From assembly GCA_038065495.1 (NCBI GenBank), contig JBBTQW010000002.1:261373-325372 (forward strand): a DNA stretch of 64,000 nt, written 5' to 3'. The translations under genes were made by a program, and so were the position numbers. This stretch comes from Patescibacteria group bacterium. GTDB lineage: Bacteria; Patescibacteriota; Minisyncoccia; Phycocordibacterales; JACOZG01. Each line of letters begins with the position of its first letter. Positions within the stretch are counted from its first letter, which is position 1. Positions 1-27,307 of the stretch are shown here, piece by piece. The notes beneath the pieces are model-generated. The model made no database searches and was not told the origin of the DNA. It worked only from the letters and a program-made list of their open reading frames with translations.

Positions 1-1580
1 TCTATACAATATATCTCGTTAATTTTCTTTAGCCTTGAGATCAGGCGGATATTGGTGTGTGGCCCACAACCAACCTCCAGCGCTTTCCCGATTTGCGCTG
101 GCAAAGTGCGATAATTATCAAATTGCTTTTTCCACCAGAAGTTCCAATCATCACCAGCATAAAAATCGCGATACCACAGTAGTTCGAAAAAATTCTTTGG
201 ACTTCTCTTTAGAGCTCTCAAAAACTTAAGTAGTATCTGTGAGCGAGAATTATTCTGATTAGCTTTTACCCAACAACTTCGTTCAAATTCTTGCGCGGCT
301 AACCACTTCTGCTGATCAACAGCCAGTACCGAACCGTCTTTGTGTTCGTCAGCCGGCTTTAATCCATAACCAGTGATATATTCTGCAACTTTCGTTTTTA
401 GATTAAACTCATTGCGTATCCGCTCGCAGCCAGCTTCGCCCATTTGTTGTGCTTGCTGGGGATTTTGTAGAAGATTAATAATTTTTTCTGCCATTTTTTT
501 AGTATCAAACGGATTAACCACATAACCGGTGACGCCATCTACAATCGCTTCCGCCGCACCACCGTAGACTGTGCCGACCACCGGCTTGCTCATGGCCATA
601 GCTTCCAAGACCACGCGTGGCAAAGAATCAAAACAGATTGATGGCACCAGAACCACGTCAGCAACAGCATAAATCTTCTTAGATTCTTCCTGCTCGAGCC
701 AACCCGTAAAAATTAATTTATCGGCCAACCCCAATTGCTCCGCGCGCGCTCTAATTTGGTCAGCAGAATGATCAATTTTGCCAGCCACTAACAGCACGGC
801 ATTAGACATAACAGGAGAAATTTCTACTAATGCTTCTAGCGCCTGTCCTCCGCCCTTTGCTCCACTTAATCTCCCACTAAATAAAATCACTTTCTTGTCA
901 GTCAAATTATATTTTTTTATTAGCTTACTAGTGATAATCTCGTCAATCTGCCAGTCTGCTAGATTGATACCCGTGTGCATCACTGATGCATTTTTGATAC
1001 CGTTCTGCGCCAGGGCTTTCTTGAGCGCTCCACTAACCGCAAACATTTGATCAACGTAGCGCAGATACTTCTTAATTAAAAAGTTACGTAATGGATTCCA
1101 GCGCTTGCCTGCTTGTTGCAGGTGATCAAGCCAAGTGGTATGGGCATCGAGATTCTCCAGATATTTTCTAGTGACCAATTTACCGTAATTAAAAGTCATC
1201 ACGTCACGCGCGGTAAAGACTACTGTCTTAGCATACTTTTTAGCAATCTTAAGGCAGTGATAAGACAGATGAAAGTGAACATTATTTGCATGCACCACGT
1301 CTGGCCGGATTGTGCTTAATATTCTCTTCACTTCTCGCACCACCGGTGGATTGTACAAACTCAAATAAGCTCGCCAAAAACTTGGATAATTACTCAGGAT
1401 CCGGTAAATTTTAATCCCGTCTTGTTCAAATTCTCCGGCGTCTTTTTTGAGCCGACAAGTGGTCACCAGATAAACACTCTGCCCGGCTTCTTTAAGACCA
1501 AGGGCTAGCTCATGAGTAGAAACAGTCGCCCCCGCAAAACCTTGCGAGGGAGCATTATCGTGAAGCAGAACTATTTTCAT
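1..1580 (-). CDS. GT4-family glycosyltransferase. The reading frame stays open past the window start. The C-terminal extension carries a possible SAM-binding motif (LEVGCGPHTN). Partial.
   Basis: ATG at 1580..1578 on the minus strand. Translation MKIVLLHDNAPSQGFAG...EAMAMSKPVVGTVYGGAAEAIVDGVTGYVVNP shows classic GT4/GT-B motifs. I found no in-frame stop down to position 1. The N-terminus follows the stop of the downstream CE4 gene after a 13-nt gap. Confidence 0.7.
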   Translation of the reverse strand, partial: MKIVLLHDNAPSQGFAGATVSTHELALGLKEAGQSVYLVTTCRLKKDAGEFEQDGIKIYRILSNYPSFWRAYLSLYNPPVVREVKRILSTIRPDVVHANNVHFHLSYHCLKIAKKYAKTVVFTARDVMTFNYGKLVTRKYLENLDAHTTWLDHLQQAGKRWNPLRNFLIKKYLRYVDQMFAVSGALKKALAQNGIKNASVMHTGINLADWQIDEIITSKLIKKYNLTDKKVILFSGRLSGAKGGGQALEALVEISPVMSNAVLLVAGKIDHSADQIRARAEQLGLADKLIFTGWLEQEESKKIYAVADVVLVPSICFDSLPRVVLEAMAMSKPVVGTVYGGAAEAIVDGVTGYVVNPFDTKKMAEKIINLLQNPQQAQQMGEAGCERIRNEFNLKTKVAEYITGYGLKPADEHKDGSVLAVDQQKWLAAQEFERSCWVKANQNNSRSQILLKFLRALKRSPKNFFELLWYRDFYAGDDWNFWWKKQFDNYRTLPAQIGKALEVGCGPHTNIRLISRLKKINEIYCI

Positions 1581-1593
1581 ACTGGAACCCATA

Positions 1594-2343
1594 TCATTCC
1601 CACTCTAACACCTCACTATTAGATAAACAAACAATGTTTTGATGTTCTCTGACAAACTTAAGGAACGATTCGAGCTCTGACCACATTTCATATTTTTCCA
1701 GTTCCCAAGAGTGACCGTAGAGGTGGAAATAGTTGCCTTCGGCGAGAGCTTTTTTAAACCATTTTCGAGCCAACGACTGCCAAGATAAACTCCATTGCTT
1801 TGGGGTATAAGCCCGCATGGGATCAAGAATCCTTCGCCAGTACAAATTATTAGAATCTAGCCACCGCAAGGGAAACGGCTGGCAGATGATAGTCACGTCC
1901 ATCAGAAATTTTTTCTCTTTTGCTTTCTGAATAGAAAGTTTTTTGGTCGTACGAACACCCATGAAACCCGACTCTCTGACAACTTTCGTAAGAAATTCAT
2001 TGGATTTCCCGCCCGGGAAGGCAAAAATCTTGGCTGGTGAACCGGTAATTTTCTGCAAAAACTCTTGGCTACCTGTTATTTCACTTTTTGCCTCTTCTGG
2101 CGATATCTCTGTCAATCTAGAGTGCGTGAGCGAATGTCCTCCGACCTCATGAGAAACAGCAAGAGAACGAATCTCTTCTTCCGTCAGCCGACGATTATAA
2201 GCAGAATACTTACCAGTTCTTCCAGCAAATTTTTCTGGTACATAAAATGTACCCTTAATGCCGTAACGGGCTAGTAAATCCGCCACTTTTAGATCAAGCA
2301 CCGAGCCGTCGTCCCAACTGGTAGTAAATAATATTTTATTCAT
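1594..2343 (-). CDS. Polysaccharide deacetylase, CE4/NodB family.
   Basis: Motifs LFTTSWDDG (TFDDG-like) and HSLTH (H-S/T-x-x-H). The ATG at 2343 forms an ATGA overlap with the stop of the upstream gene. The ORF track gives a longer form, 1594..2376. Confidence 0.7.
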   Translation of the reverse strand: MNKILFTTSWDDGSVLDLKVADLLARYGIKGTFYVPEKFAGRTGKYSAYNRRLTEEEIRSLAVSHEVGGHSLTHSRLTEISPEEAKSEITGSQEFLQKITGSPAKIFAFPGGKSNEFLTKVVRESGFMGVRTTKKLSIQKAKEKKFLMDVTIICQPFPLRWLDSNNLYWRRILDPMRAYTPKQWSLSWQSLARKWFKKALAEGNYFHLYGHSWELEKYEMWSELESFLKFVREHQNIVCLSNSEVLEWE

Positions 2344-3482
2344 CGGATGTCTCTTAGTAGCAAACAAAATTTCCAAAACAACTTACTGTTGAGGCCTTGC
2401 TTACCGGCAGAGAAACCATAAGAATATGGTATTTTAAACCATCCTCCGCTCGCGACGGAAGATCCATAGGCCATGTTCACCGCCCTTACATGATTATTTA
2501 AATTATCTGGAGATCTAAGATTGTTCCACTCTCTCGAAGCAGACAGATGTTGACGGACGATGTCCGAAAACTCTCCCTCGCCTTGATCATAGGCTTGGAA
2601 AAAGACTGAAAAAGACGTCGGTAATAATAATCGAAATGATTCGACTTTTTTGCCAAACACTTTTGAGTCCCAGATTAATGATTTATCAAATTCCTCGATA
2701 AATTGCTGGTGTGACCAGCCGGTAGTAAACTTTACAGCAAATTTATCATTAGAGAACTTAACGTTCTGGGCATTTCTATTTACAAGAGTCTCTTTGGAAA
2801 CAAAACCGTCGAGCTCCATCACCGCTCTGGAGACAAGCACTATCCCTTCTTCAAGAAGAACCGAGAGTTCTTGGATAGCCAAACTTTCGTCTAGAGCAAA
2901 CCAATTCTCGCGCAAACTTTGTATTCTCTGCCCAAAACCGTGATCAATATCTACTCCAGATATTTCCCGCACCATCCACGACGTATACACGAGCGAATAT
3001 AAAGATCCGATCAACTGACGAACGTTTTGCGGTGCTTTCTTAAATTTACTGAAAAGTAATAACTTATTGACTAAAACATCAAACAGGATAAAAGCGAGTG
3101 TCCACTGGCGATTATTCTCCGGTATCGCCAAAAAATTATGCTCTATTCCCGCAATAAGACGAAGATTTGTAGTTTCTTGAGGATAGAGAAAATAAAAATA
3201 TTCAGCAGAACTCTGGCTAAAGCTTAAGTACCGATGAGTAAAGATAAAATTAGCTTTTTCTGATAAAGACCATGGATTACTTAGTGGTTTGGGCGTCAGT
3301 TCGTCCTTGTAGATGAGAACTATGTCTAAGTCCGAGATGCCTGGACACCATTCTCCTCCCATCAGGTAAGCAGCACTTACCGTTGGATTGCTTAAAGCCT
3401 CTTTTCTAATCAAATCAACGCACTTTTCATAGTCGGCTCGCTCTAGGCGTATCGGTAAATTATAACTATTTTTTATATTCAT
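2340..3482 (-). CDS. Nucleotidyltransferase-fold protein, possibly a LicD/fukutin-like phospho-alcohol transferase.
   Basis: GG-x-PGISDLDIV is a minimal polymerase-beta-type NTase motif (G[GS]...D-x-D). The gene is a tandem paralog of the next gene and is 380 aa long. Confidence 0.4.
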   Translation of the reverse strand: MNIKNSYNLPIRLERADYEKCVDLIRKEALSNPTVSAAYLMGGEWCPGISDLDIVLIYKDELTPKPLSNPWSLSEKANFIFTHRYLSFSQSSAEYFYFLYPQETTNLRLIAGIEHNFLAIPENNRQWTLAFILFDVLVNKLLLFSKFKKAPQNVRQLIGSLYSLVYTSWMVREISGVDIDHGFGQRIQSLRENWFALDESLAIQELSVLLEEGIVLVSRAVMELDGFVSKETLVNRNAQNVKFSNDKFAVKFTTGWSHQQFIEEFDKSLIWDSKVFGKKVESFRLLLPTSFSVFFQAYDQGEGEFSDIVRQHLSASREWNNLRSPDNLNNHVRAVNMAYGSSVASGGWFKIPYSYGFSAGKQGLNSKLFWKFCLLLRDIR

Positions 3483-4521
3483 AAAGATGAAGAAATTCTC
3501 TTGTTAGCCGTTCTATTTCGATAAGACTTTGTGCTGGACGTTTTAGCAAAGCTGGTTTTCTGGCAATGGCCACTATAATTCTAGACAACCAATATGGCAA
3601 ACTTACAATTAGTCTAGCTGGGAGGTATTTTACAAAATTAGACACTTCCCACTTTCTCATAATATCAGTCGCTTGATCAAGTGACCGTGCATCAAAATCA
3701 TTTAATACCTGCTTGACCTTAAGAAACGATTCTCTTTTATATACATATACACCTCTCGTCTGCAGAAGAAGCGACGGCAATAAAAATGTGTGCGCTAAAT
3801 CATTTTTCCAATCATACTGATTTCGACTCCAATTTCCGTTTTTAACTTTACGACGAAAGTGTTCCGTAAATTTCTCGAAGACTGCCGCTTGTTCGCTGGT
3901 ATCATCTCGGACGTCAAAATGGATTTGTCCTGTTCCCAACAAAAGCAGAGCCTGTTCATAAGAGGGTAATGGCAAAAAAGACTGAGGATAATAACTTAGA
4001 TCAAATTCTGTGATGAAAGATAGTTGATGATGAGCCAGCGGATCAATCCAATAACACAACAACCCCAGTTTCAAAAAAACTTTTTTTACTCTCTGTAAAT
4101 TAGTTACAGAATCAAACACGGAATCCTTTAGAACAATCATCGTGTCCAGATCACTCCACATGGGGATAAAGTCCCGCGTGGCATAACTACCGTGGACGAC
4201 AAAAGAGTGGATAAACTCATGGACAGAAGCCGCCTGATCACGCATTAGTCTGACTATCCGATAAGCAAAGTCTTTCTTAGCCAATCCAGAGTCAAAAATA
4301 TCGGAAATAGAGACCGTCTTAACGGACAGTTCCGGCGAAAGTTTGAGTCTCGCTCCCCTCAACTGGCGATATTGTTTGATTAAGGTTGGTGCATCTCCGT
4401 CTGGAGATTTCATGAAAATGCGAAGGTTTGTATTGAAGATAAGTTGCAGAGAGTTGAGCTCTGCAACAGATTTGATTTGATCTTGGCTTGAGAAATTCCT
4501 AGAAGAAGCCGCAGTTTTCAT
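3466..4521 (-). CDS. LicD/fukutin-like nucleotidyltransferase-fold protein (putative CDP-alcohol phosphotransferase).
   Basis: HGSYATRDFIPMWSDLDTMIV resembles the LicD signature G-S/T-LLG-x-R-x-x-FIPWDDDID. 351 aa, ATGA-coupled to the GT-C gene. Confidence 0.45.
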   Translation of the reverse strand: MKTAASSRNFSSQDQIKSVAELNSLQLIFNTNLRIFMKSPDGDAPTLIKQYRQLRGARLKLSPELSVKTVSISDIFDSGLAKKDFAYRIVRLMRDQAASVHEFIHSFVVHGSYATRDFIPMWSDLDTMIVLKDSVFDSVTNLQRVKKVFLKLGLLCYWIDPLAHHQLSFITEFDLSYYPQSFLPLPSYEQALLLLGTGQIHFDVRDDTSEQAAVFEKFTEHFRRKVKNGNWSRNQYDWKNDLAHTFLLPSLLLQTRGVYVYKRESFLKVKQVLNDFDARSLDQATDIMRKWEVSNFVKYLPARLIVSLPYWLSRIIVAIARKPALLKRPAQSLIEIERLTREFLHLYEYKK

Positions 4522-6287
4522 GCCTTGTGGTAAATAGCCACTTCACCAAATTCTACAGATTTTTCTAGAAAATTATACCGATCTAAATCCCAAGTTGGAT
4601 CAGTTTTTTTGTCCCAAATAATGTACTCAATTTCATACTTATCAAACACTTCCTGTAACCACCGAGAGTCTGGAGTCTCAAGAGTTTTGGTGTAAAATCT
4701 AACAAATTCTTCTATCTTTTCGTCTGGTATCGCCTCATATGAACCAAGTGCCTCTCGGTAATATATCCCGTAAATATTTGAAGAGAGGTACGCCCTATCT
4801 GCAAAAAACCTGTCCCGAGCAGTATCTTCTTCAACTTTCTCCAGACGATAAAGAGTGGCCACCACTTCTAACAAACGTTCCTTTGTCGCCGCGAGAGAAT
4901 TACCGGCCACTCGATGATAAAAAACATTGAGAGGAGTATAGATGACGGTCAAATGCGATACTTCGTTATTGGCCAGAACAACCGCCTCTTTTTGAGCATG
5001 CTCGCTTAGCCAACGCATAACCGGACCATATTTTTGTCTTTCAATCGCAATCTCGCCACCATCTCGCCAGTCAGAAAAATAGGAGATGACCTGAGTAAAC
5101 ATCCCCGTAAAAATACTCGCTAAAATAATGACAACGGCCAATGATTTCTTGTAAAAGATGAGTCCGCGAGAAGTTAAAAAATGAAAAATCACAAAAAGAA
5201 TCATTATGAGAGCCAGCGGTTTATTGAAAAACCAATGGTAGTGATCTACCTGCATAATTCTCCCGGTCAGAATCTGTTGATTGTGCGTGACAAAAGCTGT
5301 GAGCAACAAAGCCAAACCAAAGAAATATCTCTCTTTATCTTCCCTGGGGAATCCAATTAAAAAGATCATCAGAGCTGCAATCGTCGTGAAACCAACAAAG
5401 ATGGGTGCGTGAGATAAAACTAGACCAAACCGAGCGCTGGCTTCTGTAAAAGTAGGGTACATGGAAGCTCGGTAGAGATTGATAAAGTACGGAATGGCGA
5501 CCAACAAACCACCAACAAAAACACCCGCGAGCTTAACACTCTCTCGCCACTTTCTCTGTATAAGAAAAGACAGAACCAGAACACCGCCAAAAGCATACAA
5601 AAAAGTCCAAGTGTAGAAATAATTATAGAAGTTTAAGCCAAGCAGGACAGCGCTAGCTATGCCATAACGCCAATTGCGCTTCTGATAAAATAACCAAAAA
5701 GCTATTAAAAAGGCGAAAAAGGGAATGTAGGTCATCACCGGATTAACCGGCCGGGAAAGTTGCAAAAAATTGACCGGACCCAGGCCCGAAAATATCCGTG
5801 AGAGTCCGGAAAAAGAGATGACTGAGTCACCCAACAAGATTACTGCCGCACTCGATAGAGCGAGAAGTTTATCTGCCGATAATAAAAAAACAAAAGCGTA
5901 GAGCAGTAGAGAGACAACAAAAGAGAGAACAACGCGCGACAAGAGCAAGGTATTATTGATATCCAAACCAAACAATTCCCCCATGTAGCCCACAACCATC
6001 GGTTGCAGTGGCTGCCAGAGATACGGTCCATCTTTGCCGTCTTTGTAGTAGACATTACCCATGCCTGGATGCCCATCCAATACCTCTCGTGCAAGCGCAG
6101 AGCGCGGCGAGTCTGGCAAGAGCTCTATTCCCTGGTAAATACCGTCATCTTTATGATCAATGCGAAAATAGACCTGTGGAAAGGCAACAATGATTGAGGT
6201 AAGTAAGGCTAGAACAAGCGCCCAACGATGTTTTTGCAATATTAAACCCAGTTTCATCATCAGTTCTATGACCATTGATTGTACCAC
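4518..6287 (-). CDS. Polytopic membrane protein with a C-terminal soluble domain. Putative GT-C-type (ArnT/PMT/GtrC-like) glycosyltransferase.
   Basis: About 11 predicted TM helices in the first ~400 aa, a loop rich in D/G/Y (IDHKDDGIYQG...YYKDGKDGPYLWQP) and a ~190-aa hydrophilic C-terminus. The architecture is typical of GT-C enzymes. The start may be M10 at 6260. Confidence 0.4.
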   Translation of the reverse strand: MVQSMVIELMMKLGLILQKHRWALVLALLTSIIVAFPQVYFRIDHKDDGIYQGIELLPDSPRSALAREVLDGHPGMGNVYYKDGKDGPYLWQPLQPMVVGYMGELFGLDINNTLLLSRVVLSFVVSLLLYAFVFLLSADKLLALSSAAVILLGDSVISFSGLSRIFSGLGPVNFLQLSRPVNPVMTYIPFFAFLIAFWLFYQKRNWRYGIASAVLLGLNFYNYFYTWTFLYAFGGVLVLSFLIQRKWRESVKLAGVFVGGLLVAIPYFINLYRASMYPTFTEASARFGLVLSHAPIFVGFTTIAALMIFLIGFPREDKERYFFGLALLLTAFVTHNQQILTGRIMQVDHYHWFFNKPLALIMILFVIFHFLTSRGLIFYKKSLAVVIILASIFTGMFTQVISYFSDWRDGGEIAIERQKYGPVMRWLSEHAQKEAVVLANNEVSHLTVIYTPLNVFYHRVAGNSLAATKERLLEVVATLYRLEKVEEDTARDRFFADRAYLSSNIYGIYYREALGSYEAIPDEKIEEFVRFYTKTLETPDSRWLQEVFDKYEIEYIIWDKKTDPTWDLDRYNFLEKSVEFGEVAIYHKA

Positions 6288-8137
6288 AGCTGAAATATTA
6301 ACAGGGTCCAGAGTAATTTTCTATTATCTTCTTGTCCCGAAAAATGTTCTTCTTTTAGCTTCTGAATATAATCGAAGTCAAACAAACCAGCTTTTTTTAT
6401 AGCCTGTTCGCTTAGTATTTCATTGCAGAAATCTTTAAGCTCATTCCTTAACCAGCCGGCCAAAGGGATACTAAATCCTTGCTTACGACGATAAATAATA
6501 TTCTCAGGCAATTTATCTTTCATTAGCTTTTTCAAGATATATTTTGTCGTAAACATTCTACTTTTATACTTATAAGCCAAAGAATTAACGTAGTTAGCGA
6601 AAGTGAAATCTAGAAATGGCGCCCTCACCTCAAGAGCGTGGAACATGCTTGCTCGATCAACTTTTACCAACACCTCGTCCATTAGGTAAGTCCGTAAATA
6701 TAGATAAATGAGCTTATTAGACCAACTCACATTCTTCACTTCTCCCAAATAATGATCAATCTCTTCATACTCGTTACGATCTTTTAGCTTTTCCCAAACT
6801 TCTTTTTTAAACAACTTCTCTCTATCTTCTCTCACGAAACTGCCCAACCATCTCTGGTGGCGATATTCTGTAGCCGAGCCGAAACCGTCGATAAATTTTT
6901 TAGCCTTAAACCTAAGACCAAAATAGCCGTAGCTTACTGGCAGTTTAGAAACTATTTTGCTGATTATCTTATTCCGAATAAAAGACGGTATCAGGCTATA
7001 CAGACCGGCGACCTTTTCTGCCTTAAATGTGGGATAGCCAGCAAAGAGTTCATCGCCACCGTCGCCACCAAGAGCAACCGAAACATGCTTCTTAGCAAAT
7101 TCTGATAGAAATAGGGTTGGGATAATTGAAGCATCGGCGAGCGGCTCATCAATCACTGCTCCAATGTGCGGAATCATTTCCAGTAGATCTTGCGCACTTA
7201 AAATTTTAGAATAGTGGTCTGTCCCAAGAAAATCACTAACCTGTTTAGCATAATCTGATTCATCAAAGTTCTCGTCTTCAAATCCGATCGAAAAGGTTTT
7301 AATCTTCTCTTTACTATTTTTCTGAGCATAGTAAGCCACAGTCGAACTATCGATCCCCCCACTTAGAAAAACGCCAAGAGGCACATCAGATATTAATCTT
7401 CTTTTTACGCTTTCTTCTAGTTTGTGATCTAAAACTTTTAAAGCTTCACCGAGAGAGACGTCTTGTTGGACAAAGCTCATGCGCCAAAAGATTTTCTTTT
7501 TTATCTCTCCATTCTGGAAAGACAAACAAGACGCTGGTTCTAATTTGTAAACATCTTTAAAAATACTGTTTGGCGTAGGAACATATTCATACGCTAAGTA
7601 TTTATTTAGTGATTCTAGACTAATTTCTTTTCTAAAAGACGGATGCTTTAGTAGCGCCTTTAGTTCCGAACCAAACATAAACGTGCCGTCAAATATTCCC
7701 CAATAAAGTGGCTTCTTACCAAATCTGTCTCGTGCTAGCAATAACTTATTTACCCGGAAATCGTATAGAGCAATTGCAAACATGCCGTTAAGTTTTTCAA
7801 AGCACTCTTCACCATATTCTTCATACAGCGCAAGTATAACTTCTGTATCAGTGCCTGTGGTGAACTGGCGTGATTTACTTAAAGAAAGCTCCTCTCTTAG
7901 CTCACGGAAGTTATATACTTCGCCATTAAAAACAATCGCCACCGTCATAGCTTGGTTCCACATTGGTTGCTTACCTTTCTCGCTAACATCAAGAATACTC
8001 AACCTGGTGTGAGCTAATCCAACTCCGTCTCGATAATACAGCCCTTTGTCGTCCGGGCCACGGTGCTCAATTGCGGCACGCATAGACTCAAGGTCATCTA
8101 AACTTCCTTTGCCAATAAAGCCAGCTATTCCACACAT
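6266..8137 (-). CDS. asnB: Asparagine synthase (glutamine-hydrolysing), AsnB-family amidotransferase.
   Basis: N-terminal MCGIAGFIG (Cys2 Ntn nucleophile) and the SGGIDSS PP-loop. 623 aa. Confidence 0.85.
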   Translation of the reverse strand: MCGIAGFIGKGSLDDLESMRAAIEHRGPDDKGLYYRDGVGLAHTRLSILDVSEKGKQPMWNQAMTVAIVFNGEVYNFRELREELSLSKSRQFTTGTDTEVILALYEEYGEECFEKLNGMFAIALYDFRVNKLLLARDRFGKKPLYWGIFDGTFMFGSELKALLKHPSFRKEISLESLNKYLAYEYVPTPNSIFKDVYKLEPASCLSFQNGEIKKKIFWRMSFVQQDVSLGEALKVLDHKLEESVKRRLISDVPLGVFLSGGIDSSTVAYYAQKNSKEKIKTFSIGFEDENFDESDYAKQVSDFLGTDHYSKILSAQDLLEMIPHIGAVIDEPLADASIIPTLFLSEFAKKHVSVALGGDGGDELFAGYPTFKAEKVAGLYSLIPSFIRNKIISKIVSKLPVSYGYFGLRFKAKKFIDGFGSATEYRHQRWLGSFVREDREKLFKKEVWEKLKDRNEYEEIDHYLGEVKNVSWSNKLIYLYLRTYLMDEVLVKVDRASMFHALEVRAPFLDFTFANYVNSLAYKYKSRMFTTKYILKKLMKDKLPENIIYRRKQGFSIPLAGWLRNELKDFCNEILSEQAIKKAGLFDFDYIQKLKEEHFSGQEDNRKLLWTLLIFQLWYNQWS

Positions 8138-8140
8138 AAT

Positions 8141-8533
8141 TTATATTTCATTTTTTACTAAAAAAATCGCCCGGTAGGTGAAAAAACTAAATGCAGCAAT
8201 AAGCGTGGTCATGATAACTTGTGCTATAAAGTACCAGACGCCGACCTTATCTACCAAAACAAACATTCCCAAGTCGTTTACACCCAAACTAGCCAGACTA
8301 ACGATTAGAAACAGCATTAACTGTCTGGGAGCATCGGCTCCGGCGCGACTCTGGAAGGTCCAAAACTTTTGCAGTAAGAAACTAGTGATAAACGCTAAGA
8401 CAAACGCCAAGGTTGATGAATATAGATACCAAATATCTAAAACCTCTCGAAAAAAAACCAGAGACAGAAACATTACTCCAGAAGCAACGGAGCCTGAAAC
8501 AATATATTTCAATACAGTACTTGAAACATTCAT
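8141..8533 (-). CDS. GtrA-family small membrane protein (polyprenol-phosphate-sugar translocation accessory).
   Basis: 130 aa, 4 TM helices, LQKFWTFQS motif typical of the GtrA family. Sits 2 nt downstream of the GT2 gene. Confidence 0.65.
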   Translation of the reverse strand: MNVSSTVLKYIVSGSVASGVMFLSLVFFREVLDIWYLYSSTLAFVLAFITSFLLQKFWTFQSRAGADAPRQLMLFLIVSLASLGVNDLGMFVLVDKVGVWYFIAQVIMTTLIAAFSFFTYRAIFLVKNEI

Positions 8534-8535
8534 TA

Positions 8536-9474: not shown

Positions 9475-9506
9475 GAGTCATATTAAATCACAAAAGAATG
9501 TTGCTA

Positions 9507-11839: not shown

Positions 11840-11862
11840 TTATTTATTAAGCACCCGCTCGT

Positions 11863-17820: not shown

Positions 17821-18992
17821 GTTGTTAGTTTATAGAAAAGCTCATTAAATTTAACAACCAGTTTGCCCCAGTCATAATTTTCGATCACCAACTTTTTCGC
17901 ATTACTAATTATTTTCTCCACTTCTCGCTGATTTTCTGGCTCCAGAATAAACTTAACTTGTGTGGCAACCGAAGTTGGATTATCAACCTCACAGAGCCAG
18001 CCAGTTTCGTGCTGTTTTAAGAAATCCGGGATACCGCCGACTGGTGTGCCAATTACCGGCAAACCAGCCGCCATGGCCTCCAAGAACGAGTTCCCCAGGC
18101 CCTCCGAGCGCGCTGGCCGAGCGAAAATCGTCGCCTTGGCCAAGTACTGCCCCACCACCGAACTCGCCACCTGGCCCAAAAATGACACTCTGGCGGCCAA
18201 TCCCAGGCTCTCCGCTAGGCTCACCAGACTCGCCTTTTCTGGCCCTTCGCCAACAATCCAGAGCTTAACATCACCGGGCAATAATGCCAGTGCTTTAATC
18301 AAAACATCCACGCCGTTTTTGTAAACTAGTCTCGACGTCGTAATCACTATTTTTTCAAGTTTTTGCTCTTCGCTAACAGCTAACAGCTTAAAGCTATTCA
18401 CATCCACGCCGTTGGGAATGACTGTGACTGGACAGGTTGCGCGCATTTTAGTTCTGGCCCAATTAGCTAGATAATTAGAAATGGCTTGGATGTGATTCGC
18501 GCGAGTAAAAACGCCAAATATTTTTGGCAGGAGCAAGCGCGCGCGATAGGCGAGGCTGTCCAAGTCATCGCCTTCTTGAAGTGTGAGTAAAAACGGAATC
18601 TCTGGATGAGACTTCTTGAACCAAGCACCAGCTATCCCCGCTTGGTTGGCCATGATCGACCAAACTAGATCATATTTTCTTTCGCGCGCTAATTTCTTAG
18701 CCAAACTGGCAGCAAGCCATGGGAAAAGATATTTATTCCCAGAAAGGGGAAAACGCCACAAATCAGCAATATCTGGTTGATTTTTCCCCCAACCAACCCG
18801 ATAGATTGTTAACTTGCCCTTTCGCTCATAAGGAGGAAGTTGGCTGTCAAATCTGATGGTAACCAGGTCAAACTCAAAATTAGACCCCTGACTCTCAATG
18901 GATCTGTCGATCACTTCTTGCATTGCTAGCTCAGCCCCTCCCACCCTCAAAGGAGGTGCCACTAACGAAAAAACTAAGATTCTTTTGGTCAT
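17817..18992 (-). CDS. GT4-family glycosyltransferase.
   Basis: EGLGNSFLEAMAAGLPVIGTPVGGIPDFLKQHETGWL. Confidence 0.75.
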   Translation of the reverse strand: MTKRILVFSLVAPPLRVGGAELAMQEVIDRSIESQGSNFEFDLVTIRFDSQLPPYERKGKLTIYRVGWGKNQPDIADLWRFPLSGNKYLFPWLAASLAKKLARERKYDLVWSIMANQAGIAGAWFKKSHPEIPFLLTLQEGDDLDSLAYRARLLLPKIFGVFTRANHIQAISNYLANWARTKMRATCPVTVIPNGVDVNSFKLLAVSEEQKLEKIVITTSRLVYKNGVDVLIKALALLPGDVKLWIVGEGPEKASLVSLAESLGLAARVSFLGQVASSVVGQYLAKATIFARPARSEGLGNSFLEAMAAGLPVIGTPVGGIPDFLKQHETGWLCEVDNPTSVATQVKFILEPENQREVEKIISNAKKLVIENYDWGKLVVKFNELFYKLTT

Positions 18993-19771
18993 TTCTTAAT
19001 CACTACCACGAGATGACTGGCAACAGGATTAAACCACTGCCGTCCAGAAAAGAGCTGGTCTAATCTCTCTGTCCTACGTGCCAAGAACTCTCCTAACTGG
19101 CGCGACAACATATAGACCGGACGAAGAAAGGGCAACATTGTGCCATAGCATGTCACATTCTGAGTACCAAATTGCTTCTCAAATAAAGTGGTGATGCTAC
19201 CTGGCGTAACAAAGTTGCAATAAACCGGCGCCGGTCTGCGCAATAAATAAGCCGACAACTGCGACACTTTTTGGTATAGGTAAAAGCCGTCAAGCGCCCA
19301 GAAATTTACAAGAGTAACGATGAGGTGGCCGCCAGGGCGCAGCGCTCGCCAACATTCTCTATAACCAGCAATGATCTCTTCGTCCGGCAAATATCTAAAA
19401 ACCTCCATGGCAATCACTGCATCAAAACTATTAGCTTCAAACGGAATCGCTGTCACCGTACCAGCCACAATTGGTATCTGACCATTAGAGTTTAGTTGTG
19501 CAATCTCACGCATCCGCTCGGCCGGTTCAAGACCAACAACTTGGTAACCTTTTTCTTGTAACAAAGCCAGCAAGAAGCCCGTCCCAGAACCCACTTCTAA
19601 GATCTTGGCCCCACGTGGCAGACGCTTCCCCAAGAAAGGCCAGAGCCAGTTGAACAAGCACTTGCGTCCATACAAGAAGGCGTTGTAATGGGGGTTGGAG
19701 GAAAAAAGCCGATAACGCTCGGCGAAAAGTGGTGCGTTCTGATTGTGTACCGCAACCGATTCAGTGGACAT
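18989..19771 (-). CDS. Class I SAM-dependent methyltransferase.
   Basis: ILEVGSGTGFLLALLQEKGYQVVGLEP (motif I). Confidence 0.75.
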   Translation of the reverse strand: MSTESVAVHNQNAPLFAERYRLFSSNPHYNAFLYGRKCLFNWLWPFLGKRLPRGAKILEVGSGTGFLLALLQEKGYQVVGLEPAERMREIAQLNSNGQIPIVAGTVTAIPFEANSFDAVIAMEVFRYLPDEEIIAGYRECWRALRPGGHLIVTLVNFWALDGFYLYQKVSQLSAYLLRRPAPVYCNFVTPGSITTLFEKQFGTQNVTCYGTMLPFLRPVYMLSRQLGEFLARRTERLDQLFSGRQWFNPVASHLVVVIKK

Positions 19772-20627
19772 TGACCAATACTTTATCAGCGATTTCCTTC
19801 ATCGTCAAAATTTCTATCTTGCCTTGATCTCGTAAGTTCCGCGCGCGCTCGAGAAGGGCTTCCAAAATTTTGAACTGATTTTCGACATCATAAGAGAAAT
19901 TACTGGGATGAAACCAAAGGTGAAAAACCTCCCTGCGAGCAACAGCTCGATCCAAACCAGCATTCATCTTAGCAATCATTAAGCCTGGTGAGACAAGTCT
20001 TCTTAAGCCATCTCGTCCAAGTAACAAAAGACTATCGGGGATATTCACCAGACCATTATCGGCGATATGTGGCCGAACAGTATAGACACTAGGCAAAAAA
20101 TAATCTAACCAACGACAAAATCTTTTCACCAACCTCAAGGGAACGGCGTCAAACCACTTGCGAGAATTCCCGCGATAGCACACCAAGCCGCTAGAACGCA
20201 ATGAACCGAGCCACCTGACCTGATTGCGCGGAAAAACAAAGGAATGGAAAGGTAGTCCATGCTTATCGTGCACGCGTTTGGCATTTTGTAAATCTAACTC
20301 AACTATTCTTTGATCTACTTCGTTATAAATAATGTGCCCATAAGAATGACTGCCAATCTCCTGTGAGACTTTAGAATTATTAATCAGTTCTATTGTTCTC
20401 CTAGAATCAAACCAGAGATCGAGATGACCCTCTTCCGCAACAGGCTCCAGCAACCGCCCAACAATAGCCCAGGTTGCCGATACTTGGTACTGTTCGAATA
20501 ATTTCACTAACCGCTCAACAATCAAATATTCCTGTTTAATGAGTGACCGTTGTTTGCTATCAATTTTTCGGTCCACATAACCCCAGGCCAACTCATGGTC
20601 AATGCTGATAGTAAAAATACCCTTCAT
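19761..20627 (-). CDS. Divergent polysaccharide deacetylase-like protein (CE4-like).
   Basis: ISIDHE (divergent TFDDG position), SHSYGH (H-S-x-x-H) and FVFPRNQV. 288 aa, ATGA overlap with the upstream ATPase. Confidence 0.5.
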   Translation of the reverse strand: MKGIFTISIDHELAWGYVDRKIDSKQRSLIKQEYLIVERLVKLFEQYQVSATWAIVGRLLEPVAEEGHLDLWFDSRRTIELINNSKVSQEIGSHSYGHIIYNEVDQRIVELDLQNAKRVHDKHGLPFHSFVFPRNQVRWLGSLRSSGLVCYRGNSRKWFDAVPLRLVKRFCRWLDYFLPSVYTVRPHIADNGLVNIPDSLLLLGRDGLRRLVSPGLMIAKMNAGLDRAVARREVFHLWFHPSNFSYDVENQFKILEALLERARNLRDQGKIEILTMKEIADKVLVNVH

Positions 20628-22324
20628 ACTTCCAACATTTTCTTGAGTTCTTGCTCGGGAATTTCGCTTGGTTTACTGACTGGCGCGGAGTTTTGATTAG
20701 GTTGAGAAACAGGATTAGGAGCAATGGGAGTAGTATTAGATTTAGGCAAAGCTGACTGGACTTCTTGCTGGACCGAGGCAATCACTTGCTTGAGATCAGC
20801 GCTGTGGCGACCGGTGCTCTTCTCGCGATCAGTTGACTTCTCAGCCAAAGACTTGAGGGAAACTACTTTCTCTGGCTCTCTGGCTGTTTCGCGCACTGGT
20901 CTAACCACCTTTTCTGGCGACACACTTTGCGTTTGAGGCCTTCTCTCTAGCGCTGACTCGCGGCGCGGCTCACGCTTCGGTTCTCGCGCTTCTGGCGAGC
21001 CTTTCTCACCAGCGGTGGCCGGCTTAACCGCCATCCACTCGCCAATCTCCTGCTCGACCACCGAGCGCGGCTTGGCATAAGCTTGACGCGAGTTTTGGAT
21101 AATCTCTTCCCGAAACGAGTGCGTAAGTGGTTTGATCGGCGGCAGAGTAACGGCCGAGAACGGTTGCGAACCAACGCCGTTGATCATCATGGTGAGATAA
21201 ACCTGGGCAAAGCCAAGATTCACCATGTCTTCTTGCGTAAATGTCGGCGCAAAAATCTTCTCAAACACTTCGGCGTCAAACGGACCAACTCGGAACGACA
21301 CAATCGTACCAACGTTGCCGAAGACCGCCGCACGCACCTCCTCACTCATCTGCTCAATGTACTGATGCGCGATGGTAAGCGAAAGTTTGTATTTCCGCGC
21401 TTCGGAGAGAATATTCGCAAAAGACTCATTAGCGAAAGATTGGAATTCGTCCACAAACAAATAAAATGGTGGCACTAGCCTCATCTGCGCGGAGTTAAGA
21501 TTAGCGCGGCTCATGGCGGCGAGATAAATTTTCGTGATAATCATCGAGCCGAGAAGATTAGCATTACCTTCACCGATCTGACCTTTCGACAAGTTAATAA
21601 TTAAAATTTTCTTCTCGTCCATCACTTTGCGAAAGTCAAAAGAAGACTTGGGCTGGCCAATGATGTTTCTAATCAACGGATTAGAGGTAAACTGACCGAT
21701 TTTGTTCTGGATCGCCGGCGTCGCCTCGGCGGCAAAACGCTCGGTATAATTCGCAAACTCTTGCGTCCAGTAAGCCTTGACCGAAGCATCCGTGACATTG
21801 GCCACCACCTTGTTCCGATAAGCTTTTTCCGTCAGCATGCGGTTAACGCCGAGCAAAGTTGAGTCCGGATACTCGAGTAGTGCTAATAAAGTATTCTGGA
21901 GAATGTACTGCATCCGATCAGAGAAGCTCTCCTCGCCGAAAAGTTTTTTGAAAGCGCTCATCAAACCGTTAACGACTAAATGTCTCTGTTCCGGCCCCAC
22001 GTCTTCCATCACGTTAAACGAGATTGGATTCTCGAGATCAAATGGTGCAAAGTAGACCACGTCTTTGATCCGATTCTCTGGCACATATTCCAGAAGCTTT
22101 TCTGCCATACTGCCGTGCGGATCAATCACCGCCACGCCATGGCCATCGGCGATATCTTGCACCACCATGTTCTCGAGCATGGTACTCTTGCCCATGCCCG
22201 TCTTGCCGATCACATACACGTGCCGCGCGCGATCCTCAAACTTGATGCCAAAGCGCGTGCGCTTGCCCCGGAAGTCCGTCTCGGCAAAGTAAGTTTTATC
22301 TTTGATAATTTCGCTTTCAGCCAT
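20624..22324 (-). CDS. Soluble P-loop ATPase of the HerA/FtsK/VirD4 (TraG/TraD-like) superfamily with a disordered basic C-terminal tail.
   Basis: Walker A VIGKTGMGKST, Walker B LFVDEFQSF, and IAHQY. No N-terminal TM segment. The last ~150 aa are low-complexity, rich in K/R/E/P/S. Confidence 0.6.
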   Translation of the reverse strand: MAESEIIKDKTYFAETDFRGKRTRFGIKFEDRARHVYVIGKTGMGKSTMLENMVVQDIADGHGVAVIDPHGSMAEKLLEYVPENRIKDVVYFAPFDLENPISFNVMEDVGPEQRHLVVNGLMSAFKKLFGEESFSDRMQYILQNTLLALLEYPDSTLLGVNRMLTEKAYRNKVVANVTDASVKAYWTQEFANYTERFAAEATPAIQNKIGQFTSNPLIRNIIGQPKSSFDFRKVMDEKKILIINLSKGQIGEGNANLLGSMIITKIYLAAMSRANLNSAQMRLVPPFYLFVDEFQSFANESFANILSEARKYKLSLTIAHQYIEQMSEEVRAAVFGNVGTIVSFRVGPFDAEVFEKIFAPTFTQEDMVNLGFAQVYLTMMINGVGSQPFSAVTLPPIKPLTHSFREEIIQNSRQAYAKPRSVVEQEIGEWMAVKPATAGEKGSPEAREPKREPRRESALERRPQTQSVSPEKVVRPVRETAREPEKVVSLKSLAEKSTDREKSTGRHSADLKQVIASVQQEVQSALPKSNTTPIAPNPVSQPNQNSAPVSKPSEIPEQELKKMLEV

Positions 22325-22339
22325 CTCTATTTAGTATAA

Positions 22340-22375
22340 CTAAAAACTCCCCAGTTTGCACCGAGGAGTTTTTTT
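22340..22375 (-). terminator. Hairpin plus U-run after the surface-protein gene, immediately followed by a TATACT -10 box for the ATPase gene.
   Basis: aactcc...ggagtt 6-bp stem with a 14-nt loop, flanked by an A/T run. TATACT (RC at 22333..22338) lies 8 nt before the ATPase ATG. Confidence 0.35.
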
Positions 22376-22387
22376 GTCGCAGAAAGT

Positions 22388-25156
22388 TTAGTAGCTAAAC
22401 AAATTCGGAAACATGCCGTAGAGCCAACTGCCCAGACTATCACTAGCGCTGGCAGTTTGATTGCCGCCAGAGAGATAAGCGTGATTGCTCGCGACGATGT
22501 TGAATGGAACACTTACAGCAGAGTTGTACTCTGGGTTAGTCGATGAAACCACGACAATGACATAGCTACCGGGCGTCACAGGATTGGCCGTCAGATTTTG
22601 CCCAACTGTCCAGCGAAGTTTTTTCTCGTTTACAACAGCGATTTGTCGCAAATTAACTCGATTGGCACCATCAGACGGAGTGGCAATATAGACCGTATAG
22701 CTGTAGTTCCCCGACCGACTATCCTGCCACTCAATATTTCGTTGTTCGCCCAATCTCCAAGAATCACCGGCGCGTGGTCGATCAATAGAAATGGTGGAAA
22801 CCGGCACTGGAGCTGGGACTGGCGCAGGAGCCGGTGGTGTCGGCGTCGGAGTTACGACGGGTGGAACAGTTGGAGCAGGAACGGTAGGAATAGGCGGAGT
22901 TGGATTGACTACCGGCGGTGTTGTTGTAATTACACCGGCGGTTAAGCTCACGCTACCGAGACTGAAAGCCTGGACGGAAGACCGACCAGCCGCGCTAACT
23001 GGAGCCAGACTATCAATGACCTGGACCCAGTAATTGCCCGGCGCGAGCGTCTTGACGACGCCGTTGACGGTCACTCGACCAACAGTCCAGTTGAGGCTTT
23101 TTTCGCCAGTGTCATTGATCAAGCCGTACCAAGAACCACTCTGGGTGGAAGCATAAACTTTGTACCGACCAGGAGAATAGCTCTGGCCAAGATGTGACCA
23201 GTTGATCTCGCGCACGCTACCAATCGGCCAGACTTCGCCACCACGAGGGAGATTGACGGAGAGGATTGGAAGAACGGGAATTGGAACATTGTTAAGAGAG
23301 AAAGTGACACCGTTTGCTGTCACGTTGCTGGCATTGGAAATATCAAGATTATTGAAGTTTGAATCAATCCCCACAATACGAGAAGCTAAGAGAGTCGGAG
23401 AGAGCGAAACATTGTCGGCACCAGCGACAATATCAGCCTTGAATGTGATGTCTCTTCCGGGTTCAAGAAAAATTTTCAAATTCGTGAAGTCAGCGACTAT
23501 CGCGCCAGAAACTGGATCACAAGGACAACCAACCGACGAGGCACCATAAATATTAGTCCCATCAACTAAGCGAATATTGGTCAATTTTTTACCGGCAACC
23601 GTAGGATCAAGAGCAAGACCTAAGCCAGTAACTGTAGACGCACCATTATTTGACAGTAGGCGAAACACCCCCAAAACTACATTTTCAGTCACAGTAGTAG
23701 CTGAAGTTGTAACCGTTCTCGCGGCTGGAGAACTTGGACTGATTGCAGTGTAGATTTGCGCTCCGGTCACTCCTTTCATCTCAAACCCGACCATATTGCT
23801 CGCTCCAGTTGTAGGAGAAACCACTTGGACAGAATAGAACCCAGCAGGGTAAGGCCGACCGGAAACGGGTTCGATCATTGAGTGATAAATAGTCGTACCA
23901 TCTCCACCGACTACTGGATTTTCATTAGTCTGACTAACGAGAGCACCAGTTTGTCTGTTGTAGACCTTAATTGTATTCCCTGACGCGGGAAAACGCGTGC
24001 CGATAATTTGTAGGTAGCACTTTTCAGCTGGTGGGAGACAGCCCAAAACCGCAGCCGAAGTGATGTAAGGCGCGCGCTCACCGAAAACAGCGAGGGAATT
24101 ACTAATTGCTGGAGAATTGGTGAGAGTAATCCACTGACACCAACCATTAGAGGGGCAGAAAGCCATTGACCAAAGTACACTAGAGTAACTGCCACCAAAC
24201 ATTACTTGTGGATTGAAGTTCGCAACAATGCGAAAAGTCTGAGTAGTGCCGGCTGGGATACTTAGACCCTGGCTAATATCCGGCGTGGTCGTACCCGATC
24301 GCGGCCAGCTACTGCAGAAATGGTAATCTGGCAAACCCGGTACAGTGCAATTATTACTTTCTACATAAGGATACACCTGTATAATAAAACCTGGAGGCAA
24401 CACCACACCTTCTGCGCCAGCCGTGATATCCACATTGTAAGTGGCTGTTAGCGCTGATTCTTGCTGATTGCTATCGTAAGTGAGCGCAAGTGTAGGATTA
24501 GGTTGAGCGGTAACGGTTGGCGCGCCTGTCACAGACACGGCCACGCTCACCTGCGCTTGATTGCCATTCACGTCGGAACTGTAGAAAGTGGCCGTGTAAG
24601 TGCCAGAGTGCGTATAAGTGTGCTGGAAGCTTACGCCCCACTGATTAACTTGGCCGGAAGTCTGGGTGCCATCGCCCCATTCCACCGAGGCGCTGGTGAC
24701 CGTATTGATATTGGTCCACGAGTACCAGAAATTATTTTGATTAGTAAAAACGAGCGATGGGCCGGAAATTTGCGTAATCTCGAGCACTGGAGTAGCCGGT
24801 GCCACGCCAGAGCTATTGGCTTTGCCACTGATCACCGTGCCGGCTTTGTTGGTGGTTTTTTTACTGCCGGCTTTGATCGTTAACTTGTTGGGATTGGTTG
24901 GCGCCTTAGTTGGATCAACTTTGGCTGGGCCTTTGGCTTTGTCCCGAGCGGCTGTGAGCTGGGCAACAAGCGGATTAGGCACAGCTGGCTTAGCGGCCGA
25001 GACCGCTGCCACTTGTGTGGCGGCCGGCGTAGCCGGCCACAGCCAGCTAATTAAATTCTGGAAAAAAGACGGTCTAGTTTCCGTCGTCTGGGCGTAAACC
25101 GTGCCAGTTACAACCAGAGTAACGAGCACTAGAACCAAAAGTAGTTTCTTGATCAT
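22388..25156 (-). CDS. Large secreted surface protein: signal peptide, PKD domain, Ig-like beta-rich region, PT-rich linker and two C-terminal Kre9/KNH-like (PF10342-like) modules.
   Basis: Signal peptide MIKKLLLVLVLVTLVVTGTVYA. PKD signature VEWGDGTQTSG...FQHTYTHSGTYTATF. PT linker PVVNPTPPIPTVPAPTVPPVVTPTPTPPAPAPVPAPVP. Repeated module NLPRGGEVWPIG..EINWS...GRYKVYAST.SGSWYGLIN... 922 aa. Confidence 0.75.
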   Translation of the reverse strand: MIKKLLLVLVLVTLVVTGTVYAQTTETRPSFFQNLISWLWPATPAATQVAAVSAAKPAVPNPLVAQLTAARDKAKGPAKVDPTKAPTNPNKLTIKAGSKKTTNKAGTVISGKANSSGVAPATPVLEITQISGPSLVFTNQNNFWYSWTNINTVTSASVEWGDGTQTSGQVNQWGVSFQHTYTHSGTYTATFYSSDVNGNQAQVSVAVSVTGAPTVTAQPNPTLALTYDSNQQESALTATYNVDITAGAEGVVLPPGFIIQVYPYVESNNCTVPGLPDYHFCSSWPRSGTTTPDISQGLSIPAGTTQTFRIVANFNPQVMFGGSYSSVLWSMAFCPSNGWCQWITLTNSPAISNSLAVFGERAPYITSAAVLGCLPPAEKCYLQIIGTRFPASGNTIKVYNRQTGALVSQTNENPVVGGDGTTIYHSMIEPVSGRPYPAGFYSVQVVSPTTGASNMVGFEMKGVTGAQIYTAISPSSPAARTVTTSATTVTENVVLGVFRLLSNNGASTVTGLGLALDPTVAGKKLTNIRLVDGTNIYGASSVGCPCDPVSGAIVADFTNLKIFLEPGRDITFKADIVAGADNVSLSPTLLASRIVGIDSNFNNLDISNASNVTANGVTFSLNNVPIPVLPILSVNLPRGGEVWPIGSVREINWSHLGQSYSPGRYKVYASTQSGSWYGLINDTGEKSLNWTVGRVTVNGVVKTLAPGNYWVQVIDSLAPVSAAGRSSVQAFSLGSVSLTAGVITTTPPVVNPTPPIPTVPAPTVPPVVTPTPTPPAPAPVPAPVPVSTISIDRPRAGDSWRLGEQRNIEWQDSRSGNYSYTVYIATPSDGANRVNLRQIAVVNEKKLRWTVGQNLTANPVTPGSYVIVVVSSTNPEYNSAVSVPFNIVASNHAYLSGGNQTASASDSLGSWLYGMFPNLFSY

Positions 25157-27285: not shown

Positions 27286-27307
27286 GGGGGTAGAAAGGGG
27301 TGTAAAC

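Follow-up and report, generated by a model that had tools for sequence, protein, structure and literature searches.

The stretch analysed here (the window) is 64,000 nt of a Patescibacteria genome (contig JBBTQW010000002.1), and its left end is occupied by a run of 21 consecutive minus-strand genes that we read below as about two thirds of a putative envelope-glycoconjugate cluster. According to the open reading frame (ORF) listing and translations, the run fills positions 3–25156, with the leftmost gene cut by the window edge. Gene starts are those of public gene calls, and junction lengths were counted from these. Thirteen of the 20 junctions overlap, ten by exactly 4 nt (ATGA type) and the others by 8, 11 and 17 nt; the non-overlapping junctions are gaps of 1, 2, 3, 8, 23 and 32 nt plus a single gap of 63 nt, which separates the gene of a 922-aa surface protein from that of an ATPase. 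An original prediction, made from the letters alone, had described about 22 such genes joined throughout by overlaps or by gaps of no more than 33 nt; the run itself stands, its count is 21, and the close spacing holds at 19 of the 20 junctions, the 63 nt gap being the exception.

In the direction of transcription, from right to left, the run opens with the 922-aa protein (22388–25156), predicted to be secreted or anchored and a candidate glycosylation substrate, which has an N-terminal hydrophobic helix (residues 5–23), a PT-rich stretch (743–790) and weak matches to PKD and Kre9_KNH. It is followed by a VirD4/TraG/TrwB-like soluble P-loop ATPase (20624–22324) and a putative CE4-like deacetylase (CE4b, 19761–20627), whose Polysacc_deac_1 match (E 6e-4, 20.1 bits; cut-off 23.1 bits) stays below threshold in the Pfam scan, which covered every ORF of at least about 90 aa across the 64 kb. 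Next come a methyltransferase dependent on S-adenosylmethionine (SAM; MT2, 18989–19771, Methyltransf_11 E 3e-21), genome-specific like CE4b, and five GT4 glycosyltransferases with Glycos_transf_1 matches: GT4_f (17817–18992, E 6e-37), GT4_e (16798–17820, E 2e-7), GT4_d (15797–16801, E 2e-26, its ATG at 16801 being that of the public 334-aa call), GT4_c (14772–15800, E 3e-16, in what proved to be a conserved f-e-d-c string) and GT4_b (13714–14775, E 1e-14). The second SAM methyltransferase, MT1 (12774–13721, Methyltransf_31/11/25 E 1e-16 to 6e-18), precedes an APH/protein-kinase-like phosphotransferase, probably a sugar kinase (11863–12777), whose APH match is sub-threshold here (E 0.002) and significant in its orthologues, for which PF01636 is on record. 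GT4_a (10664–11839, Glyco_trans_1_4 and Glycos_transf_1), which like MT1 belongs to the conserved core, and a GT9 glycosyltransferase of the heptosyltransferase family (9507–10667, Glyco_transf_9 E 3e-22) complete this part of the run. In architecture, MT1 and the kinase together resemble a WbdD-type enzyme for methyl-phosphate capping that has been split in two; this reading was rejected, and sequence searches of the PDB returned no WbdD.

The remaining genes begin with a GT2 polyprenol-phosphate sugar synthase of the GtrB/DPMS type (8536–9474, Glycos_transf_2 PF00535 E 1e-28), the C-terminus of which contains hydrophobic helices (residues 242–289), and a small membrane protein of the GtrA family (8141–8533, GtrA_DPMS_TM PF04138 E 2e-18), a candidate flippase for polyprenol-phosphate sugars. 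An AsnB-type glutamine amidotransferase, probably active in uronic-acid amidation (6266–8137, Asn_synthase E 3e-98 with GATase_6/7), separates these two from a 579-aa membrane glycosyltransferase of predicted GT-C fold and undescribed family (4518–6257). Beyond it are a 351-aa nucleotidyltransferase-fold protein (3466–4521, NTP_transf_2 E 1.3e-4, 22.7 bits; cut-off 21 bits); a 380-aa protein (2340–3482) with no family in Pfam or NCBIfam, possibly of a pol-beta-type nucleotidyltransferase fold; a CE4 polysaccharide deacetylase (1594–2343, Polysacc_deac_1 E 6e-20), whose ATG at 2343 lies in a 4-nt overlap with the upstream gene; and the edge-truncated gene of a GT4 glycosyltransferase fused to a SAM methyltransferase (3–1592, Glycos_transf_1 E 3e-35). 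At full length this fusion measures 676 aa on the same genome, and the full gene carries Methyltransf_11/23 (L003/L049). Neither tRNAs nor Rfam families were found in the window. Pfam agrees with the single GT9, the GT2, GtrA, AsnB, the two SAM methyltransferases and the VirD4-like ATPase of the original prediction, and with one of its two CE4 deacetylases; its series of about eight GT4 enzymes is borne out as a series, with seven members by Pfam. The label 'LicD-like' given to the 380-aa and 351-aa proteins had to be abandoned, as neither Pfam (PF04991) nor NCBIfam gave a LicD match and the only match was the weak NTP_transf_2; the two have in common a region with the pol-beta-type motif G[GS]...SDLD (BLASTP E 0.006).

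Within the window, Pfam detected no Wzx, Wzy, ABC transporter, Wzz or initiating phosphoglycosyltransferase (PGT) family, as the original prediction had stated. The left flank was read on a second assembly of the same locus (GCA_964356885.1, contig CAYHIU010000002.1; exact protein matches), which extends the inspected stretch by 16 kb to 80 kb; negative coordinates denote positions beyond the left window edge. Exact protein matches also put the locus on Logan and ENA contigs as long as 443 kb. The whole cluster spans about 37.7 kb and about 30 genes, from −12515 to 25156, so that the window has about two thirds of it, and is bounded on the left by secA. Past the GT4/methyltransferase fusion, the same strand encodes a CTP_transf_3 cytidylyltransferase, an Inositol_P-family phosphatase and a NeuB-like synthase, and downstream of the latter a 143-aa protein and a 593-aa protein (u593), a putative ulosonic-acid transferase that weakly matches the BFO_1060 and surf_polysacc glycosyltransferase models. 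Beyond u593 the genes are in mixed orientation: a methyltransferase, a Wzx flippase (424 aa, PF01943 and PF13440, −7039 to −5765), a 360-aa unknown protein, a GT4, a GDP-mannose 4,6-dehydratase (GDP_Man_Dehyd E 2e-154), a Wzy_C+TPR protein of the WaaL/PglL/WsfB type (742 aa, −12515 to −10287), a 137-aa ORF and secA. The apparent lack of a flippase and of a polymerase or ligase is an artefact of the window edge: the operon continues past the left end, where Wzx and Wzy_C are encoded, so that the absence of an exporter holds only inside the window. The practical warning is that such claims are unsafe when made from a window whose edge the operon crosses.

This finding bears directly on the reading first proposed for the locus, in which the whole operon would work without Wzx, Wzy or ABC transporter, and polyprenol-phosphate monosaccharides would be added singly by the GT-C enzyme to surface proteins or a wall polymer. 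The GT2/GtrA/GT-C trio behind that reading is real, conserved and found fused in nature, export genes are lacking inside the window, and PT-rich linkers are present, as had been claimed, both in the 922-aa protein and in an adjacent 386-aa secreted protein (26034–27194). However, the cluster itself includes Wzx and Wzy_C+TPR, here and in relatives, which largely refutes the model, and the eight or nine soluble GT4 enzymes and the GT9 would be left without a role if single sugars alone were exported. For the operon as a whole we consider it very unlikely, while polyprenol-phosphate-sugar-dependent extracytoplasmic glycosylation is retained for the three genes of the trio. The contention that this is no classical locus likewise gives way to a fairly conventional Wzx/Wzy_C pathway, with the GT-C module embedded in the cluster. 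Of the findings that the original prediction had named as pointing to an ordinary polysaccharide locus, about half were made: Wzx and a protein of the O-antigen-ligase family lie outside the window, the GT-C protein is not a Wzy, and a PGT was not located here.

The cluster is a conserved feature of Paceibacteria (Patescibacteria, also known as the candidate phyla radiation, CPR), groundwater bacteria with tiny genomes, and its gene order is kept. A GT-C profile scan of a genome collection gave 39 loci and was followed by tblastn with all cluster proteins; orthologue counts around GT-C are given over 41 related loci. The core order on one strand is MT1, the APH-like gene, GT4_a, GT9, (GtrA), GT2, a variable insert, GT-C, the GT4/methyltransferase fusion and, later, u593. 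GT2 lies upstream of GT-C in 31 of the 41 loci, and an orthologue of the fusion directly downstream of it in 32; GT9 orthologues are present in 20 (median identity 57%), those of MT1 have a median identity of 64%, and the APH-like gene is always coupled to the upstream methyltransferase in relatives. One locus (L011, Paceibacterota STE_50) has the same order as the window all the way from GT4_b to u593. Wzx stands next to u593 on the opposite strand in at least nine related loci, and Wzy_C+TPR comes after it; the Wzx family is 54–82% identical across the class and found on the same contigs as GT-C, and the Wzy_C+TPR orthologues score Pfam E-values of 1e-20 to 1e-24 in five loci. The genes that vary between genomes are AsnB, the two nucleotidyltransferase-fold genes (the 380-aa protein was found in L011 only, one of the 41 loci), CE4, the NeuB module and the CE4b+MT2 pair; relatives without the NeuB module have Kdo-type genes (SIS+CBS, DAHP_synth_1 and Hydrolase_3). 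The synteny comparison called for by the original prediction found the block order conserved in related loci, and the cluster is not peculiar to this organism. The GC content is 0.40–0.46 over most of the glycan block (1–18000) against 0.47–0.51 elsewhere in the window; a recent island as its explanation was rejected for the core, which is syntenic class-wide.

The variable insert between GT2 and GT-C consists of AsnB here and in L011, L033 and L044. Elsewhere we observed in its place a 443-aa protein with a double nitroreductase domain and a protein of about 510–521 aa without family (L006, 7106–9990; L008, 7163–10008). L008 also has a GT2-GtrA fusion adjoining an FAD/amine-oxidase-like protein and an SDR epimerase, a set that we take to be reminiscent of DprE1/DprE2-type epimerisation of a lipid-linked sugar.

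The GT-C protein has about 11 transmembrane (TM) helices and a 185-aa C-terminal globular domain. Its sequence matched nothing in Pfam, NCBIfam or the PDB, and a 46-sequence profile likewise found nothing in the PDB. It has hundreds of homologues at 55–79% identity in metagenome-assembled genomes of Zambryskibacteria, Vogelbacteria and Paceibacterota, and the family amounts to 1,891 representatives at 50% identity (E <= 1e-3), or 539 at E <= 1e-30. An AlphaFold2 model built from the 46-sequence alignment (pLDDT 91, pTM 0.90) was compared with the PDB by Foldseek, which returned STT3, AftA, PglB, DPY19 and ArnT (E down to 4e-6), with no Wzy or WaaL structure among the matches listed. Acidic residues in the first external loop are expected for GT-C enzymes, and E45, D49, E58 and D61 in the first extracytoplasmic loop are invariant in the alignment. 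The protein is therefore predicted, in line with the GT-C-like membrane enzyme of the original prediction, to be a GT-C-fold enzyme of a family for which neither Pfam nor NCBIfam has a model. A relationship to Wzy or WaaL was rejected on fold: the protein has no Wzy_C domain, and no WaaL-like fold is among the matches listed.

Natural fusions within the family join GT2 to GT-C (four examples), GtrA to GT-C and GT4 to GT-C, the GT-C parts of which again have no Pfam match, and the GT2/GtrA/GT-C trio is conserved in relatives. Together, fusions and conserved adjacency strongly tie GT-C to a donor made by GT2 and flipped by GtrA, and that the three form a module glycosylating outside the membrane from a polyprenol-phosphate-sugar donor is well supported. 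A GT2 with C-terminal TM helices, a GtrA and a linked GT-C-fold transferase occur together here as they do in GtrA/GtrB/GtrC of Shigella and Salmonella phages, CsbB/GtcA/YfhO of Firmicutes and Ppm1/PMT of Actinobacteria; in the actinobacterial PMT systems, PT-rich linkers are the usual acceptors. Unlike those systems, the GT-C protein here matches neither PMT, PMT_2, YfhO, ArnT nor any other Pfam model and has an AglB-like C-terminal domain, AsnB (in relatives, the nitroreductase-like and unknown proteins) intervenes between GtrA/GT2 and GT-C, and the module sits in a Wzx-dependent cluster instead of standing alone. As separate observations, a second, distant GT-C paralogue (21–25% identical to the window protein) lies beside GtrA within the cluster in L030, L031, L032, L040, L044 and L047, and the locus group L043–L048 has only a 26–31% identical version of GT-C.

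STT3 and PglB are among the top Foldseek matches, and the C-terminal domain proved to be of the AglB type. The GT-C protein could be a divergent AglB/STT3-like oligosaccharyltransferase that transfers a glycan en bloc, with GT2 initiating synthesis on polyprenol monophosphate and the Wzy_C-TPR protein acting as a polymerase or in another pathway. Initiation of an oligosaccharide on polyprenol monophosphate is the task of AglJ in haloarchaea, and such a GT2-initiated route would explain the missing PGT, none of which is found in this genome's cluster. The overall GT-C fold and the invariant acidic residues of the first external loop are features of the GT66 enzymes STT3, AglB and PglB as well, and GT-C, at 55–79% identity, is far more conserved than the neighbouring glycosyltransferases. 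Nevertheless, the WWDxG motif is lacking from the 46-sequence alignment, where the equivalent region reads xRDGG / ANNExSH, as is the DK/MI motif; Pfam STT3 and the sequences of known oligosaccharyltransferases are unmatched, even by profile; and the protein is shorter, with its about 11 TM helices. AftA, ArnT and PMT, all of which take monosaccharide donors, score equally well, the GtrA+GT-C and GT2+GT-C fusions and the gene context best fit a monosaccharide relay, and a WbaP-type PGT does occur in relatives. We thus regard an en bloc role of this kind as improbable; a canonical oligosaccharyltransferase was ruled out by the absent WWDxG motif.

With gene presence and order as observed, and the functional steps read from family membership, we favour as rather probable a conserved envelope-glycoconjugate cluster in which a Wzx-flipped glycan would be ligated by the Wzy_C+TPR protein and an extra sugar added through GT2/GtrA/GT-C. 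At the cytoplasmic face, a lipid-linked oligosaccharide of some 9–11 sugars would be built by the GT4 enzymes, by the GT9 and by u593 as the putative ulosonic-acid transferase, using activated sugars supplied by the NeuB-like synthase/phosphatase/CMP-transferase trio and the GDP-mannose dehydratase just outside the window. Tailoring could be the work of the methyltransferases, the APH-like kinase, the CE4 de-N-acetylases, the AsnB amidotransferase and the two nucleotidyltransferase-fold proteins. The Wzx homologue would then flip the glycan across the membrane and the Wzy_C+TPR protein transfer it en bloc, most likely to Ser/Thr/Tyr of proteins secreted to the cell surface, among which the neighbouring PT-linker proteins are examples. 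Separately, GT2 would make a polyprenol-phosphate monosaccharide, GtrA flip it, and GT-C add the sugar outside to the same glycan or protein. An initiating PGT would be encoded elsewhere in this genome (relatives have a WbaP-type enzyme upstream), and the VirD4-like ATPase and the surface protein would be co-transcribed neighbours.

The closest parallels to such a pathway are the S-layer slg clusters and the PglL/WsfB type of O-glycosylation (Paenibacillus alvei, Geobacillus stearothermophilus, Neisseria, Tannerella). Wzy_C is a domain of the S-layer O-oligosaccharyltransferases WsaB and WsfB, and a C-terminal TPR is common to WsfB and PglL; the slg cluster of P. alvei contains an asparagine-synthase homologue and adjoins the S-layer gene (PMC2943079). 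Our cluster resembles them in its size and place beside a surface-protein gene, in its many cytoplasmic glycosyltransferases including a glycosyltransferase-methyltransferase fusion, in its asparagine-synthase homologue (PMC2943079), and in its Wzx-type flippase and Wzy_C transferase with C-terminal TPR, which may transfer to protein. With Tannerella it shares a putative terminal ulosonic/nonulosonic-acid module, including u593 with its weak match to the BFO_1060 family. The likeness in Wzy_C+TPR architecture to PglL and WsfB, together with the P. alvei parallel, favours protein acceptors such as the PT-linker proteins. Unlike the slg and PglL systems, the cluster here has no PGT, has GT2/GtrA/GT-C in its core as well as the GT9 and APH-like kinase, and belongs to a CPR host, its glycan and acceptor being putative.

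Several points weigh against this reading. No initiating PGT (PF02397 or PF00953) was found in the inspected 80 kb, and when a relative's PGT served as query, the search brought up only proteins closer to that query, not this genome's copy. On the side of the reading, a WbaP-type PGT (Bac_transf E 2e-54) lies about 7 kb upstream of the ATPase in seven related loci, its family being 67–94% identical among Zambryski-, Azam- and Paceibacteria. A Wzz/PCP chain-length regulator has no Pfam match in the window and is not on record in the extension, and no LCP ligase was seen. Promoter-like and terminator-like sites within the block (35 against 33.6 in shuffled sequence, and 25 against 19.9, respectively) were no better than shuffled. 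In addition, Wzy_C proteins can be polymerases or lipid/glycan ligases, which sequence cannot separate, and a single product for all genes is assumed, when the cluster may encode two or more glycans.

A rival product is a membrane- or wall-anchored glycopolymer, i.e. a lipoglycan or secondary cell-wall polymer with chemistry like that of the inner core of lipopolysaccharide (LPS), for which Wzy_C would serve as polymerase or as ligase to lipid or glycan. The GT9 and protein-kinase-like enzyme in the conserved core, the genes for a CMP-ulosonic acid here and the full Kdo set in relatives (SIS+CBS, DAHP_synth_1, Hydrolase_3) would suit such a product. Yet neither an LCP ligase nor lipid A or teichoic-acid genes were seen, CPR bacteria are inferred to be monoderm and without LPS (PMC5220378), and a protein acceptor is favoured by the TPR of the Wzy_C protein as well as by the PT-linker proteins next to the cluster. 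We rate a glycopolymer as possible though doubtful.

The enzyme classes and the logic of the favoured pathway, namely Wzx-dependent assembly with a Wzy_C-type transferase and a three-component GT-C system, are already known. What is new is that a single cluster, conserved in CPR bacteria, combines both routes, and further the GT-C family and the association with a coupling-protein homologue. Parcubacteria are rich in glycosyltransferases, with an envelope that is undefined (PMC5220378), and the envelope of CPR/Patescibacteria is essentially uncharacterised, yet these epibionts depend on surface contact with their hosts. Of a genome below one megabase, the cluster probably accounts for several percent.

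The coupling-protein homologue is the ATPase near the head of the run, which scores above threshold with T4SS-DNA_transf (PF02534; E 3e-10, 40 bits, cut-off 20.1), TrwB_AAD_bind (PF10412; E 2e-9, 37 bits, cut-off 20.5) and DUF87 (E 6e-7), while its scores with the NCBIfam TraD/VirD4-like equivalogs all fall far below cut-off. It is like the type IV coupling proteins VirD4, TrwB and TraD in this P-loop ATPase domain, and unlike them in having no TM helix or N-terminal membrane anchor, in the absence of virB4, relaxase and other type IV secretion genes from the 64 kb window (Pfam), and in heading a string of glycosyltransferases in most relatives; its C-terminus is a low-complexity tail. It is one of the orphan coupling-protein homologues of Patescibacteria, in which only 148 of 5,713 VirD4-type homologues lie near virB4 (PMC12102498).

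A metagenome scan for the ATPase found more than 570 relatives, and 80 loci were kept. Downstream order was judged in the 55 loci with at least 2.5 kb of downstream sequence, and in 44 of them homologues of GT4_f, e, d and c come after the ATPase in the same orientation. In 35 of these 44 the distance to the first GT4 is no more than 1 kb, and about half have gaps below 50 nt. GT4_f follows the VirD4-like gene in 59 of the 80 loci, the f-e-d-c order of the window is kept in 29 of the 36 loci that have at least three of the four GT4 types, and several loci run on into GT4_a and GT9. The CE4b+MT2 pair is a genome-specific insertion between the ATPase and GT4_f: CE4b occurs in one of the 80 loci, and MT2 is absent from this position in relatives. 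Upstream neighbours were counted in 49 of the loci L051–L130, in 42 of which a DUF4015 putative glycoside hydrolase (about 400 aa, Pfam E 1e-88) directly precedes the ATPase, with murC, rsmI and secF further upstream; none of these four genes, nor a PGT, is in this window, and the 922-aa surface protein has no homologue upstream of the ATPase in relatives.

The constant place of the ATPase in front of the GT4 genes offers a new clue from genomic context. As evidence of function this adjacency is weak, because unrelated housekeeping genes are equally syntenic upstream. The ATPase is probably not a glycan enzyme but a translocase whose gene order is conserved, and by default we take it to serve separately in the transport of DNA or protein. 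We lean slightly towards regarding the ATPase and the surface protein as functionally unrelated passengers in a frozen gene order, the former linked to type IV pilus/ComEC uptake or to a distant type IV secretion system. The synteny of murC, rsmI and secF, the ComEC, RecJ and type IV pilus genes within the same window, the general remoteness of the Patescibacteria homologues from virB4 (PMC12102498) and the surface protein that is not conserved at its position are all consistent with this, whereas the same-strand GT4 string in 44 of 55 loci, often with gaps below 50 nt, the 4-nt overlap of the ATPase gene with the next glycan gene here and the DUF4015 putative glycoside hydrolase as conserved upstream neighbour argue the other way. 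That the ATPase was exapted as the motor of an envelope pathway (for example in export or assembly of a glycan or glycosylated surface protein), beside a clade-specific AglB-like GT-C acting on PT-linker proteins, strikes us as a distinctly improbable alternative; if true, motor and GT-C would form glycoconjugate secretion machinery of a kind not known elsewhere. The cluster in any case gives a genomic context to the many orphan VirD4-type ATPases of Patescibacteria, whose function is treated as open in PMC12102498.

The rest of the window holds housekeeping genes: a str/S10 ribosomal operon, surface proteins with PG_binding, PKD and TIG domains, ComEC, RecJ, PGK, TIM, a type IV pilus cluster, NusA and trigger factor. 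On one strand, between 42326 and 56189, lie ComEC (42326–43789), RecJ (44469–46130) and the type IV pilus block, which encodes PilC, PilB and a pair of N_methyl pilins, the 607-aa member of which bears a CarboxypepD_reg domain. These genes make up the apparatus for DNA uptake and pili that CPR bacteria typically have, and the pilins could be alternative targets of glycosylation.

The str/S10 string (minus strand, 27467–36235) comprises S12, S7, EF-G, a 511-aa unknown protein, EF-Tu, S10, L3, L4, L23 and L2; the 511-aa ORF between EF-G and EF-Tu (31686–33221, minus) has only a sub-threshold PsbP_2 fragment match. The string ends after L2 at a 12-bp GC-rich palindromic hairpin (27467–27493). S19 normally follows L2 contiguously, and as neither S19 nor L22 was found by tblastn in the window or is on record in the 16 kb to the left, the L2–S19 junction is broken in this genome. 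Facing L2 on the plus strand (27258–27493), a perfect sigma-70 consensus (TTGACA, 16 nt, TG-TATAAT; 12/12 matches) precedes GAAAGGGG, which resembles a Shine-Dalgarno sequence, and then an ATG at 27309. The ORF that starts there encodes a 43-aa hydrophobic peptide, MKIRLTTALIALITIFGLATIGLGTWQVYKEVSHTIGFSGPCR, and then reaches the shared hairpin; it has the look of a gene for a small membrane peptide, unannotated and convergent with L2.

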